A stretch of DNA of 34,205 nucleotides from NCBI GenBank assembly GCA_035561755.1, contig DATMXG010000020.1:1-34205 (forward strand). Reading direction: 5' to 3'. The stretch comes from Candidatus Methylomirabilis sp. (lineage in GTDB: Bacteria; Patescibacteriota; Patescibacteriia; 2-12-FULL-60-25). The notes under the pieces were generated by a model. It was not told where the DNA came from. It saw only the letters and a list, made by a program, of their open reading frames with translations, and did no database searches. The position numbers and the translations under genes were made by a program. Positions 3,430 to 15,964 of the stretch are shown piece by piece; within the stretch, counting starts at the first letter, position 1; each line of letters starts with the position of its first letter.

Positions 3430-3470
3430 ACAGGCTCGCTCCAACGATCCACGCTCGCGTACGGCCGAGC

Positions 3471-3731
3471 CCTCCCCTCCGTCATCCTGAGTGAGGGAGC
3501 CGCAACATGGTTGCAGGAGCGCAAGGCAGCTTGGCGACCGAGCGAATGGATCTCTTGGACATCTCAAACGTCCTATATCATTCTGATCTCTGTTCGAGAT
3601 ACTGACACTCGAATGGAATGCGTCTCGTATTGGGACTTGCCACACTACAAGGGATCCTTCGCTCGGTCGCCAAGTCGCTTTGCGCTCGTTCGAACGACCC
3701 GCGGCTCCCTTGCTCAGGATGACGGAGGGGA
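3471..3731. mobile_element. Non-autonomous (MITE/REP-like) element with about 85-bp inverted arms, same family as the GIY-YIG flanks
   Basis: CCCCTCCGTCATCCTGAG...GATCTCTTG (3471-3557) is inverted relative to CAAGGGATCC...CTCAGGATGACGGAGGGG (3648-3731); highly similar to 15362-15447. Confidence 0.75.
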
Positions 3732-3877
3732 TGGCGCGGCCGTGATGTCTACGAAGTATGATCTTCGCGTATACGGTCAGATCGAGCGCCAGACGCCGAA
3801 CAATGACTAAACCCCATCCAAGATTGGATGGGGTCGAGTGTGTGCTTGCGGAACGAGACGAAGAAAGGCGCTTCCCG

Positions 3878-11029: not shown

Positions 11030-11035
11030 GCCCAT

Positions 11036-12036
11036 TCGGCGGCTTAAGATGCGGTGTTCATACAACTATACGAAGTCTGCCGCCGATATTTCTCGTGAGA
11101 GGACTTTGCGTGGAACGTCAAATGACTGTAGTAGTGGTGTCCTCTCCCTCTGCCCCGCCTGCATGCAGGCGGGGCCCCTTCCTTGCTCCGAACGCAAATT
11201 CGTGGCAGAGAAGGGGTGACTACCGATTACGCGTCTTCGACTACGTGATGTATGTCACTCCGCTCATTCAGAGGCCGTTCGACGGCCTGCGCGGCTGATG
11301 GAAAGTTGTCGAATGACTACTGGGCTGCTGCCGCGCCTACCGTTCCTGCGTGAAGTCCGGATCGTATAGGGGAGACTACATCCTGATTGTCGTAAGACTA
11401 TATGTCACGTGTTCTCCCCGCTTCTTCACAAGTTGTTTGATGACTCGAGCGGCTTCCCATGAACTGTCAAAATACTAGCCGTTCTCTGCCGCTCGACTTT
11501 CGTGAGAGGACTACTCGTCCGCTGTCGAAACACTGGAAGTACTCAGCCTCTCTCTGCCTCATCCCAACGATTTCCGACGGGATGAGGCCCCCTTCCTTGC
11601 TCCGAATGCGAATTCGTGGCAGAGAAGGGAATGGCTGTTGGAGTGTTGTCATGCGACTCGTTGGGTGCTGCCATTCCCGCCACTTCCACGTGACTTATGG
11701 AGGCGCGTCGCAAGACTAGAGATACAGAGTCACGCTTACTTTTCCGCGAGAGGTCTAAGCACTGGCTGTCGAAAGACTGAGGCGGCTTTGACCTTTCACT
11801 CGTCCTGCCGTTCGCGAACGGCGGGGTCCCTTCCCTGCTCCGACCAAGAGTTCGAGGCAGAGAAGGGGTGACTTTTGTAGATGTGTCTACAACTAGACGG
11901 ACAATGTCGCCCCGCTCCTTATCACCGTGGCCTTACTCGATCTGTCGAAGGACTGGTGGTACCGTGCCACAATTCTCGAGCGAGAGGACTCATGTGCTGC
12001 TGTTTACAGATTCACAGGAAGCTGTCCTCTCGCTTG
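11036..12036 (+). ncRNA. Upstream dual-spacer stem-loop guide-RNA array (TIGR-like), 13 units
   Basis: Units start at 11036, 11097, 11213, 11289, 11369, 11445, 11504, 11627, 11689, 11748, 11865, 11927, 11977; consensus stem-T-N10-TGTC-loop-GACT-N10-T-stem. Confidence 0.85.
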
Positions 12037-12073
12037 TCCCGCCCCGGTGTCACACCGAGGCGGGGCTTTTTTT
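12036..12073 (+). terminator. Intrinsic terminator ending the upstream array
   Basis: GC hairpin GTCCCGCCCCGGTG-TCA-CACCGAGGCGGGGC followed by T7. Confidence 0.85.
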
Positions 12074-12121: not shown

Positions 12122-12150
12122 TTGACAATATCCCAGTTTTCAGCTATGTT
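12122..12150 (+). promoter_or_regulatory. sigma70 promoter of the IS110/Nop-domain gene
   Basis: TTGACA-17 bp-TATGTT. Confidence 0.7.
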
Positions 12151-12230
12151 CGCGGGTCCGTTTGTCGAAAGACTGCACCGGACCTGTCCGCCATATCGGC
12201 GGAGAGCGCACATCGAAAAGGACAGAGACG

Positions 12231-13856
12231 ATGAGATATGCCATCAGCCACGCACTGCTCGGCACGAGTTACGTCGCCACGCTCCACGACGATCCCTCGG
12301 TGATACCGGACGTCACGCGCTTGCGCGACGACGCGTCCAAGGAGGAGTTCCTCCTCGTGACGCTCAAGCCCGGCGACACGCTCTTCACGGATTTGGGCGG
12401 CGCCACCGACAAGGTCGCGCTCGTGGCAACGGTCCGCGGAGCGGAAGTCCACCGCATCCCCACGTTCCGCCTCGGCAACAAGGCATCGTACGCGAAGGAC
12501 GCGGAGGCCAGGGGCTGGACGATCGAAGACGAACCCTCACACGGCAATGAGACGAGCGACGAGCTCACCGTGCGCAAGGCGCGCGCCATTGCCACCGCGA
12601 TCGCCGCGGTCGAAAGGACGGGCGACTTCGTGCACCAGCGCGACGAGGACCAGACGCTCCTGCTCGTAAAGCAGGAGTACCGTTCCTTCCGCATGATGCA
12701 GAAGGTGCTCCTCGCCAACACCCAGCGCCTGCTCTCCACGTACAACGACCGCTACCTCCTCGAGCTCGCGCGCGAGGTGAAGCCCGAAGACGCAGCCGGG
12801 CTGCTCTCCGGAAACAAGGTGAGCACGAAGGCCGCGAAGAAGGCCATCGAGGCGCTGCTCGTGGACATCCCCGAGCACGAGCGCGGCGCGTTCATGCAGA
12901 AGCTGGGGCTCGACAAGCTCGAGGCGAAGAAGATGATCCCGCGCACGGCCGTGAAGGGCATGTTCGCAAAGATCATCGAGGCGCTCCTCGAGGCCGGTCC
13001 CATGAGCCCGTTCATGACGGCCATGAAGGAGACCGAGAAGAGCATCCAGAAGCGACTGAAGGGCCACGCGGTATTCTGCACGGTCTTCGAGCCGATCCCC
13101 GGCTGCGGTCCGCGCATCGCCGCGCGCATGCTGGCCGCGATCGTGGACATCCGGCGGTTCGAGAGCATTCCCGCGCTCAAGGCCTACGCCGGCTACCACC
13201 ACTTCGAAGACGGCTCGCGCGCACGCAGGCGCGCCGGCAAAGTGTCGAACTGGAACACGGAGCTGAAGCAGGCCGTGTTCCTCTGGACCGAGCAGACGCT
13301 CAAGATGCCGGCCTCGCCCTGGCGCGAGAAGCTCGACAGGCGACGCGCCTACGAGCTCTACAAGATCCTGAAGGATCGGCAGAGCAAGGCCGTAGCGGAC
13401 GGTCTCGGCTACGAGATCATGCCGGTCGAGTTCACGACCCGCTCAATCGCGTGCGTGAACGACGTCACGGTGGCGGACCTCGCGATCCTGAACGCCCATG
13501 TGGACGCGCTCCGCAAGGCAGCAGGCATCAAGCCGCAGAAGACCGACGAGGAGAGCGAGGAGGGCGAAGGCGAGGACTCCGAGGCTGCCATCGCTGCCAA
13601 GGATCCCAAGCTCGCGCGTCTCGTGCGCGGCGTGAAGATGCAGGGGCTCCTGAAGGCCAAGCGTTGGCTCGGCCAGCAGCTCCTGAAGCACATCTTCAGG
13701 TCGTGGCGCGCCACGCTCGGCCTGCCCGAGTTCCCGGCCACAGTGAAGTCGGCTCCGACCGCAGGCGCAGGCAACGCGACTCCCTCGCCGGAGGCGAGTG
13801 CGCCTTTGGCGCAGAAGGCTCTGACCGAAGCCCCGGCTCCCGCTCCTGCGGAGTGA
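12231..13856 (+). CDS. IS110/IS116-related Nop-domain RNA-guided protein (Tas-like) with degenerate RuvC-like N-terminus
   Basis: IPGCGPRIAARMLAAIVDIRRFESIPALKAYAGY..DGSRARRRAGKVSNWNTELK resembles the Transposase_20/Nop domain; coiled coil precedes it; ATG 12231 has AAGGA upstream and lies downstream of the promoter (541 aa). Confidence 0.8.
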   Translation: MRYAISHALLGTSYVATLHDDPSVIPDVTRLRDDASKEEFLLVTLKPGDTLFTDLGGATDKVALVATVRGAEVHRIPTFRLGNKASYAKDAEARGWTIEDEPSHGNETSDELTVRKARAIATAIAAVERTGDFVHQRDEDQTLLLVKQEYRSFRMMQKVLLANTQRLLSTYNDRYLLELAREVKPEDAAGLLSGNKVSTKAAKKAIEALLVDIPEHERGAFMQKLGLDKLEAKKMIPRTAVKGMFAKIIEALLEAGPMSPFMTAMKETEKSIQKRLKGHAVFCTVFEPIPGCGPRIAARMLAAIVDIRRFESIPALKAYAGYHHFEDGSRARRRAGKVSNWNTELKQAVFLWTEQTLKMPASPWREKLDRRRAYELYKILKDRQSKAVADGLGYEIMPVEFTTRSIACVNDVTVADLAILNAHVDALRKAAGIKPQKTDEESEEGEGEDSEAAIAAKDPKLARLVRGVKMQGLLKAKRWLGQQLLKHIFRSWRATLGLPEFPATVKSAPTAGAGNATPSPEASAPLAQKALTEAPAPAPAE

Positions 13857-13863
13857 TCAGTCT

Positions 13864-14627
13864 CGGGTTGGCGACTAGAGGACGCCTAGTCTTAGCGACT
13901 TTCCGGCTACTGTCGCCAACCCGTTCGTTCGTTCTTGTGAGGACTGTACTGGGCCTGTCTGCAAGACTGCGGGATGGCTGTCCTCACTCCTGTCCCGTCC
14001 TATCTTGAAAAAGGTGGGACGGGATCTCTTTCACACGCATGATCTATTCTCGTGCGCGTAAAAGGGAGAGAACTGCTTGATGTGTGTTAATAACTCATGG
14101 TTGAGTGTCCTTTCCCGTCTCTTCAGCGCGGCTCATGCAGGCGTGTCGACAGACTCCCAGGCCTGTGCCGCGCACACTTTTCCGCGAGAGGATTCATGGA
14201 GCGGTGTCGGAAGACAAGGTTGCCAGTATCCTCTCGCTCCTTCCTTGCTCCGACCACGAGTTCGAAGCAGAGAAGGGGTGACTTTTCGAGTCGCGTTTCA
14301 CGACTTCGCGAGCGCTGTCATCCCGCACATTTGAGAGGACTCGATTGCCCCTGTTAATCAACTGGATCTCCGGTGTCCTCTCTCTTCTATAAATGGGCCT
14401 AGATGTGGATTGTCGCGTTTGTGCGACTTAAGCTCGTCTGGCCCTCTGCCCCGCCTGCATGCAGGCGGGGCCACTTTCATGTTTCATGACTTGTTCGTGG
14501 ATCGCGAAGGGGAGGACTAGGTGTGCGGTGTCGATAGTCCACTGAGGGATTGTCCTCCCCACACTTTTTCTTCGCGAGAGGGCTTTGGAAGAGCTGTCGA
14601 AAGACTATCAGTGCGTTGTCCTCTCGC
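13864..14627 (+). ncRNA. Downstream dual-spacer stem-loop guide-RNA array (TIGR-like), 10 units
   Basis: Units start at 13864, 13937, 14064, 14126, 14184, 14275, 14333, 14395, 14509, 14574; same architecture as the upstream array. Confidence 0.85.
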
Positions 14628-14630
14628 TCG

Positions 14631-14664
14631 CCCCGTCCCGCAATGCGGGACGGGGTTTCCTTTT
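14631..14664 (+). terminator. Intrinsic terminator ending the downstream array
   Basis: CCCCGTCCCGC-AAT-GCGGGACGGGG followed by TTTCCTTTT. Confidence 0.8.
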
Positions 14665-14711
14665 CTATACGAAATCAGCCGCCCCGTGAGGTACGGGACG
14701 GCTGTTGCGTT

Positions 14712-15203
14712 TTAGACCGACAAGGGGGGAGGGAGGCTCTGCTCGCGGACGTCCGCGAGAAACGCGGGAAGGAACTCCTTGAGTTGCCGGATGGCGTCTT
14801 CGTGGTCCGTGAACGGAATCTCGTGCCACACCGACGGGTTGCCGCGCACGAGGCGCGACACGCGGCGCTGGTCCATACGCTCCTTCTCGAACAGGAGTAC
14901 CACGGGCTTGTACGCATGAAACGCCATCTCGATTTCGATTCCCACGCCTAACGACGGCATACCCACGTAGGCGATCACGAGGTACGACAGCGTCACGGCC
15001 GTCCGGTCGATACGGTCCACGTCCTGCGGCGACTTATTCCGGTGCAACGCCGGATCGCTGAACCTGTGAGGAAGGTACGCGCTGAATCCGTACTCCTCGC
15101 ATACGGCGCCTACCCACTCGTAGAACATGCGGAGCCTTGCGCGTTCCGTGTCTTCCATGTCCGAAAGCGCGCCAGAAATGTACACCATCCGTTTCTCGCT
15201 CAT
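14712..15203 (-). CDS. Nucleoside 2-deoxyribosyltransferase / dNMP N-glycosidase-like protein
   Basis: VYISGAL, YLPH, D..AV, PSLGVGIEIEMA..KPVVLL motifs. Confidence 0.8.
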   Translation of the reverse strand: MSEKRMVYISGALSDMEDTERARLRMFYEWVGAVCEEYGFSAYLPHRFSDPALHRNKSPQDVDRIDRTAVTLSYLVIAYVGMPSLGVGIEIEMAFHAYKPVVLLFEKERMDQRRVSRLVRGNPSVWHEIPFTDHEDAIRQLKEFLPAFLADVREQSLPPPLSV

Positions 15204-15361: not shown

Positions 15362-15964
15362 CCTCCCCTCCGTCATCCTGAGCGAGGTCGCCGCGACATG
15401 GTGACAGAAGCGCAAGGCAGCTTGGCGGCCGAACGAAGGATCTCTTGTGTACCACAACGTCACCCGAACCTATTCATCCAAACGAGCCGCTATGTCCTAT
15501 TTCCTGCTGCGTTGCGATTGGTTTTGATACGCCGTTTCCCGTATTTCATCCACGGCGTACCATCCACGTGCAAGATCAGCCCACGTGGGGTTCTTCTGTC
15601 TGATCAAGCGAAGTTTCTTTTCTCGTAACCATCCCTTGAGTTCCTTTTCCCGAGCAATCGCCTGTGCCATGTCGTCATATTGTTCGACGTACACGAGCTT
15701 GTGACATTGATAGCGCCATGTGAAACCAGCGTGAAAATTCGTTTTATGCTCGAAGACCCGACTGAATAGGTCGTTCGTCACGCCAATGTATATCGTTCCC
15801 CATCTATTCGCCATGATGTATACGGCATTCATTCCATCCTCGAGCATAGGTGGTGATTAAGGGTAAGTGCATGCTGTACAAGAGATCCTTCGTTCGGTCG
15901 ACGAGGAACTACGTCTTTCTTCCAATCTCTCGCGTCGACCTCGCTCAGGATGACGGAGGGGGAG
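15362..15964. mobile_element. GIY-YIG gene cassette bounded by long inverted repeats
   Basis: 15362-15447 (CCCTCCGTCATCCTGAGCGAGGTCG...CGAACGAAGGATCTCTTG) is inverted relative to 15878-15964. Confidence 0.7.
15497..15847 (-). CDS. GIY-YIG nuclease family protein
   Basis: VYIMAN..TIYIGVTNDL..RVFEH..FT.RY....LVYVE..AIAREKELKGW.R.KK; real start may be 15832. Confidence 0.93.
   Translation of the reverse strand: MLEDGMNAVYIMANRWGTIYIGVTNDLFSRVFEHKTNFHAGFTWRYQCHKLVYVEQYDDMAQAIAREKELKGWLREKKLRLIRQKNPTWADLARGWYAVDEIRETAYQNQSQRSRK

Follow-up and report, generated by a model that had tools for sequence, protein, structure and literature searches.

The open reading frame at 12231..13856 of the window, the whole stretch of 34,205 nucleotides that was analysed, encodes a protein of 541 residues which, judged by its sequence and its structural model, is a CPR TasR with a dead RuvC domain, belonging to the stem-loop type of TIGR-Tas systems. 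Lacking three of the four catalytic acids, it would bind DNA under RNA guidance and block transcription without cutting, a reading which leans on experiments with related proteins and to which we assign a probability of roughly 0.8. The earlier note on this DNA had proposed a programmable DNA-binding repressor or a recruiter; its main guess is right, but the class had already been published (Faure et al., Science 2025; Xu et al., 2026 preprint). The protein adds a member and not a concept, the subclade to which it belongs having a distinct, charge-reversed pocket. The gene and the domains of its product are as follows.

12231..13856, + strand: tasR gene, nuclease-dead TIGR effector of 541 aa (Pfam, profile and fold matches)
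12231..12635, + strand: RuvC-fold domain, residues 1-135 (6s16 match)
12636..13061, + strand: coiled-coil region with a long helical tip insertion, residues 136-277 (secondary structure of the model)
13062..13385, + strand: Nop-type RNA-binding core with wedge loop, D327 being at 13209-13211 (Pfam, profile and alignment)

Fold of the protein and its relation to known systems

The sole Pfam match of the 541-aa protein (P0001) is PF02371, at residues 284-359. When its sequence profile was compared with the PDB, the best match was the TIGR TasR 9MTY with an E-value of 6.8e-24, while IS621 reached 6.9e-4. An AlphaFold2 model was built on a 63-row alignment, that is, on 63 of the 71 homolog matches after eight partial, divergent or insertion-bearing homologs were left out; its mean pLDDT is 86.7, and every 10-residue block of residues 1-160 lies above 90. 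With the whole chain, the top fold match is again 9MTY (Z 19.9, rmsd 5.0, 286 residues aligned), followed by IS621 (Z 15.9, rmsd 6.3, 289 aligned) and then by TasH, and Foldseek agrees with this top order in placing TasR 9MTY ahead of IS621. Residues 1-135 align with the RuvC resolvase 6s16 with a Z of 10.6 and an rmsd of 3.2 over 122 aligned residues. The N-terminal motifs picked out by the earlier note are present in the translation of 12231-13853, and the model bears out their placement, with strands at residues 2-6, 50-55 and 72-77 and a helix at 109-128. That note had taken the IS110 layout as its reference, of which the RuvC-type fold holds, whereas TIGR TasR is the better frame by profile and by fold. 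The comparison with TasR and IS621 which it had proposed, made here in fold and in sequence register, places the protein closer to TasR, with an acidic tetrad that is not intact.

By sequence profile and model, the Nop-type RNA-binding domain is closest to that of Tas proteins, and the coiled-coil region probably serves as a dimer scaffold, as in the TasR structures. Two large clade-specific insertions are seen in the model at about residues 170-258 and 386-465. The C-terminal tail has low pLDDT and contains no Tyr or His past residue 492; according to Xu et al. (bioRxiv 10.64898/2026.09.09.750476), a C-terminal Y/H processing loop is not expected in stem-loop Tas proteins. Three family members (P0035, P0062 and L067) carry an additional insertion of ~100 residues directly before the wedge loop.

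TaTasR (9MTY; PMC12045711) is the best solved match across the RuvC, coiled-coil and Nop parts, and as described it likewise has no Ser at the IS110 position; it differs in being an active nuclease with four acids, in its dual-repeat guides of 36 nt and in its CCA/UG boxes. Faure et al. (Science 2025, PMC12045711) described TasR proteins of a CPR clade in which RuvC is inactive, the Nop part has large insertions and the arrays are stem arrays, and the structures of PateTasR and CsTasR, neither of which cleaved, were reported by Xu et al. (bioRxiv 10.64898/2026.09.09.750476). These two proteins were compared with ours by their published description. CsTasR (Ca. Staskawiczbacteria, 547 aa) is described as resembling our protein in its CPR host, its similar size, its dead RuvC and Nop core with large insertions, the stem-loop units on either side of its gene, the 10-nt spacers with a hairpin between them, and its lack of a Y/H tail. 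However, its first two catalytic positions hold R8 and V126, and it has an 80-residue insertion between RuvC strands 3 and 4, while the TasR here has S6, D54, RxxR and a long coiled-coil tip and lacks that insertion: in the model, strand 27-31, helix 34-44 and strand 50-55 follow one another directly, so that the features of the CsTasR subclade are absent. Most likely, the CsTasR pattern corresponds to a sister group whose proteins start with G-I-R-H, and the TasR here stands outside that subclade; judged from the alignment, it appears to be a new member of a sister subclade of CsTasR, with substitutions of its own. PateTasR (Patescibacteria, 329 aa) shares an inactive RuvC whose pocket contains an Arg (R91), CUU/UG-type boxes and stem-loop guides in the published account, but is compact and without the two large insertions.

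The IS110 bridge recombinases (IS621, ISCro4) share the common fold, as the Z of 15.9 for IS621 indicates, and PF02371. Unlike them, the protein here has no DEDD tetrad, no catalytic Ser and no PF01548 match, occurs in a single copy, and is accompanied by an array of 23 units in place of one bridge RNA. An IS110 recombinase was considered and rejected as its identity, given the S-D-R-R tetrad, D327 in place of Ser, the 23-unit array, the single copy and the stable neighbours. Among the 25 Pfam families listed for the 63 members, the DEDD-domain family (PF01548) does not appear, and a profile-profile comparison with three IS110 proteins aligned the C-terminal part alone.

Catalytic positions of the RuvC domain

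The catalytic register was taken from a sequence alignment of 200 proteins, comprising 197 of the 208 stored proteins (at least 300 aa) and three IS110 proteins, of the same class. D11, E59, D104 and S240 of the IS110 protein L023 fall on S6, D54, R118 and D327, and the register rests on L023, the other two IS110 references (L024 and L025) being misaligned. L023 is gapped at the third acid. In the partial 9MTY sequence the DxxD motif is followed by a Pro 12 residues on and by a Phe 15 residues on, and by eye the same distances are counted from R118; because of this equal spacing, R115 was assigned to the third-acid position. The D-E-D-D positions then read S6-D54-R115-R118, with three of the four acids lost in this alignment. 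The earlier statement that most catalytic acids are replaced is borne out to this extent, the second position being still acidic and the last two reversed in charge.

12246..12248, + strand: S6, first catalytic Asp position, lost (alignment)
12390..12392, + strand: D54, catalytic Glu position, acid kept (alignment)
12573..12584, + strand: R115-x-x-R118 replacing D-x-x-D, charge reversed (alignment; R115 register from spacing)

None of the 63 close homologs has Asp at position 6, 60 of the 63 are acidic at position 54, and R115, R118 and D327 are each found in 63/63 members of the family alignment. In the tree which FastTree built from the Nop core, the S-D-R-R tetrad is fixed in a clade of 67 tips with a support of 1.0: no tip has Asp at position 6, and Arg stands at 115 in 66 tips and at 118 likewise in 66. 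The RuvC domain is under purifying selection, with a dN/dS of 0.26 against the 88%-identical relative (L001). Since the substitutions are fixed across 63 homologs, the loss of the catalytic acids is, on the alignment, a clade trait and not decay. The loss of the IS110 catalytic Ser, also claimed before, is confirmed throughout these homologs: D327 occupies the position of the catalytic Ser of IS621 and of L023, and S329 aligns with the residue that follows the Gly. A loop particular to this clade, which precedes the Arg helix (window 12531-12551), contains two further conserved acidic residues, E101 (63/63) and E107 (61/63).

Shorter relatives start with Y-A-V-D-Y where the TasR here has Y-A-I-S-H, and the Asp is kept in 25 of the 200 aligned proteins. 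Four of the shorter relatives (P0082, P0088, P0145 and P0171) retain the D, the E and the last D of the tetrad, and may possibly be active nucleases near the dead CPR clade.

Guide arrays, leader element and targets

The gene is flanked by two arrays on its own strand, and the elements predicted around it are listed below.

11033..12040, + strand: upstream stem-loop TIGR array of 13 units, 11041-12026 (unit scan)
12122..12150, + strand: sigma-70-like tas promoter with 10/12 consensus matches (promoter scan)
12149..12190, + strand: conserved half-guide hairpin in the predicted tas mRNA leader (motif search across loci)
13862..14630, + strand: downstream stem-loop TIGR array of 10 units, 13873-14620 (unit scan)
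14630..14666, + strand: intrinsic-terminator-like hairpin ending the downstream array (terminator scan)

Each unit consists of a stem, CT, 10 nt, TG, a loop hairpin, CT, 10 nt, TG and the closing strand of the stem, one spacer being of 11 nt; this is the stem-loop TIGR layout described by Faure et al. (PMC12045711). In all, 23 full units and one truncated unit in the leader are predicted, in agreement with the "about 23 targets" counted before. A stricter scanner recovered 17 of the 23 and 0 on the opposite strand, and at all 16 loci scanned (the window included, L037 being a duplicate of L032) it was found that there are 3-33 candidate units on the gene strand versus 0-2 on the other. Units are also present at four of five further loci, with none within 1.5 kb at L064. 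No two of the 23 spacer pairs of the window are alike, and the 88%-identical relative shares just 2 spacers with it exactly. Of the 172 A spacers 119 begin with A or T, as do 117 of the 172 B spacers; this bias fits a CTN box C with 9 paired bases, the arrangement reported for CsTasR (Xu et al., bioRxiv 10.64898/2026.09.09.750476). At 12038-12073, in the stretch that separates the upstream array from the tas promoter, a hairpin followed by a T run was noticed by eye where the terminator scan had missed it; it suggests that the array and the tas gene are separate transcripts. A 48-nt linker between array units is repeated at 11177, 11591, 11829 and 14239, and a 22-nt palindrome occurs at 11153, 14449 and 24879, the last outside the tas locus. 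An Rfam search gave four weak matches, all under the gathering scores.

The truncated unit, or half-guide, consists of one box D, a hairpin and box C, with a short closing stem in place of the spacers. All 13 loci inspected, several of which are interrelated and hence non-independent, have TTGAC at a comparable position, and the half-guide motif, expected about 0.008 times per 150 nt from the genome, is present in 10 of the 13 loci with upstream DNA, 41 nt past TTGAC in eight and at 44 and 50 nt in two. Outside these 13 loci, the motif lies at 41 nt in L062, L065 carries a variant at 41 nt in which both sides of the hairpin are changed as judged by eye, L067 has a half-guide at another spacing, and L066 repeats L044; the leaders with a half-guide are those of the window, L001, L032, L035, L038, L040, L042, L043, L044, L045, L062 and L065. 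The closing stem is 81% paired, its covariation score was reached by 9 of 500 shuffles, and a slid control gave more two-sided changes. Because the element is kept while the real spacers vary freely, it appears to be a cis-acting site, and plausibly it is a candidate autoregulation site bound by guide-free TasR on its own mRNA, which bears on the matching of Tas levels to the guide supply. Alternatively, it could be a relic first unit. Autoregulation by L7Ae is known in box C/D systems. No mention of a leader half-guide was found in the main text of Xu et al. (bioRxiv 10.64898/2026.09.09.750476), whose supplements could hold one, or in the text available for 10.64898/2026.08.11.744272.

The natural targets of such TasR proteins are described as mostly unknown by Xu et al. 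(bioRxiv 10.64898/2026.09.09.750476), and the host assembly at hand allowed the guides to be checked against the host. All 23 guides were searched as spacer A joined to the reverse complement of spacer B, with gaps of -1 to +2 and under two trimming rules, and none of the 23 matches the own assembly (G000) with at most 1 mismatch in 18. Under the first-9 rule, self matches at 2 mismatches numbered 13 versus 6.6 for shuffled pairs, and under the last-9 rule 6 versus 11.4; the counts at 2-3 mismatches lie near the shuffled-pair control, the two trimming rules giving no consistent signal. Given the fast turnover of the guides and the lack of any match to the host assembly at fewer than 2 mismatches, the targets are most likely foreign DNA, of phages or other mobile elements.

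Across 172 guides from 15 loci one pair stood out, that of window guide 11870 and L042:2312, which agree at 16 of 19 nt and in reading frame, an equal score class being reached in one of 10 permutations. The guide in question (11870-11908) is alone among the window guides in being largely preserved in the close relative (L001:3654). An exact 18-mer search of viral sequences covered two of the 23 window guides (11870 and 14191) and the L042 guide; the latter two had no viral match, and guide 11870 matches 18/18 in a tailed-phage record (G301, L047:1501-1518), in a frame suggested beforehand by the L042 guide. This match is at chance level and serves as a lead only, exact 18-mers matching about once per variant by chance: in the control, a pattern of eight variants had 9 matches in five or six unrelated proteins. 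In the same phage record a second window guide matches at 2 mismatches, both at third codon positions, so that at gap 0 one of the 22 other window guides is found versus 0 of 135 guides from unrelated loci. In four records related to G301, only the homologous site of the first match was present, and unrelated guides twice reached 2 mismatches.

Mode of action, rival explanations and genomic setting

The fold, the substitutions and the 23 dual-spacer units are observed in the window, while processing, binding and repression are inferred from the relatives of the protein. Following the published TasR structures and assays, a TasR dimer would bind each array unit after its excision as a single tigRNA, and the two DNA strands would pair with different spacers, one with A and the other with B, along some 18 bp. 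The dead RuvC domain may hold the DNA through the two invariant Arg which stand where metal-binding Asp were, and the bound TasR-guide complex would stop RNA polymerase. CsTasR and a TasA are reported to repress in E. coli in a guide-dependent and reversible manner (Xu et al., bioRxiv 10.64898/2026.09.09.750476). The earlier statement that the protein is neither a transposase nor a nuclease accords with the residues, the array and the experiments on related CPR dead TasR proteins. What speaks against repression by binding is that D54 is kept, that E101 and E107 are conserved near the last RuvC helix, and that the experimentally tested CsTasR carries other substitutions than the TasR here. A more specific picture, in which the change from DxxD to RxxR created a pocket that grips DNA, fast-turnover guides silence phage genes, and the half-guide in the mRNA is a self-limiting decoy, is put forward tentatively as possible but rather doubtful as a whole; if true, the leader decoy would be the first autoregulatory element in a TIGR system, in parallel with L7Ae.

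A dead RuvC domain may also serve to recruit other proteins, as that of Nop5 recruits fibrillarin and dead Cas12k recruits a transposase. The TasR here could in the same way recruit a partner enzyme encoded elsewhere through the insertions at the coiled-coil tip and in the C-terminal part, which are large and clade-specific, the first lying in a well conserved region (dN/dS 0.09 over residues 136-277); a snoRNP parallel was raised for the CPR group by Faure et al. (PMC12045711). We consider this unlikely, since the neighbours of tas at 11 related loci, named by eye from their translations, are housekeeping genes which vary from locus to locus and include no accessory gene common to them, related proteins repress alone in E. 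coli, and the insertions of related TasR proteins touch tigRNA or DNA (both Xu et al., bioRxiv 10.64898/2026.09.09.750476). Of the two roles named in the earlier note, that of a repressor is favoured by the residues, the array and the work on relatives, whereas that of a recruiter finds no support at the loci compared, which have no shared accessory gene beside tas.

In nucleases of the RNase H fold, the Asp of the first strand is required. Its absence in 63 of 63 homologs makes it very improbable that cryptic nuclease or nickase activity resides in a rearranged site using D54 together with E101 and E107, even though the acid at position 54 (D or E) and the two Glu are strongly conserved and the four shorter relatives with D, E and last D place the lineage near possibly active enzymes. 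TaTasR is killed by D11A (Faure et al., PMC12045711), and the two other Asp positions here hold an invariant Arg, a residue that in the inactive PateTasR obstructs the pocket (Xu et al., bioRxiv 10.64898/2026.09.09.750476); the conserved Glu could simply pair with the Arg. Regulation of host genes, by way of imperfect matches on the chromosome that carries the system, is likewise hardly to be expected. The locus is chromosomal and single-copy, its position between uvrB and dnaG is common to the window, L001 and L035, and TasR tolerates partial pairing of one spacer (Faure et al., PMC12045711); however, matches at 0-1 mismatch are absent, those at 2-3 mismatches are near the shuffled-pair control, and the spacers differ between close relatives, whereas fixed host targets would need conservation. 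Repression of foreign DNA by binding is the reading we prefer.

The nearest named relative of the TasR is from Ca. Uhrbacteria (CPR, Patescibacteria), with 88-90% identity, and the host is an ultra-small bacterium. The own assembly, 91% complete, contains one copy of tasR, and the gene is patchy among kin: 2 of the 10 other genomes in the genus carry it, as do 7 of 36 in the family. The tas neighbours are kept the same at 49% protein identity, while at the loci other than the window, L001 and L035 different neighbours are found. Adjoining the downstream array, an ORF on the minus strand (14712-15203) weakly resembles nucleoside 2-deoxyribosyltransferases (PF05014, E 0.0011, below the cut-off); it is present in L001 and was not seen in L035 or L039. 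Further on, a GIY-YIG gene (15497-15847, minus strand) lies inside inverted repeats (15362-15961), related repeats being found at 3461-3743, and together with its repeats it looks like a small mobile unit.
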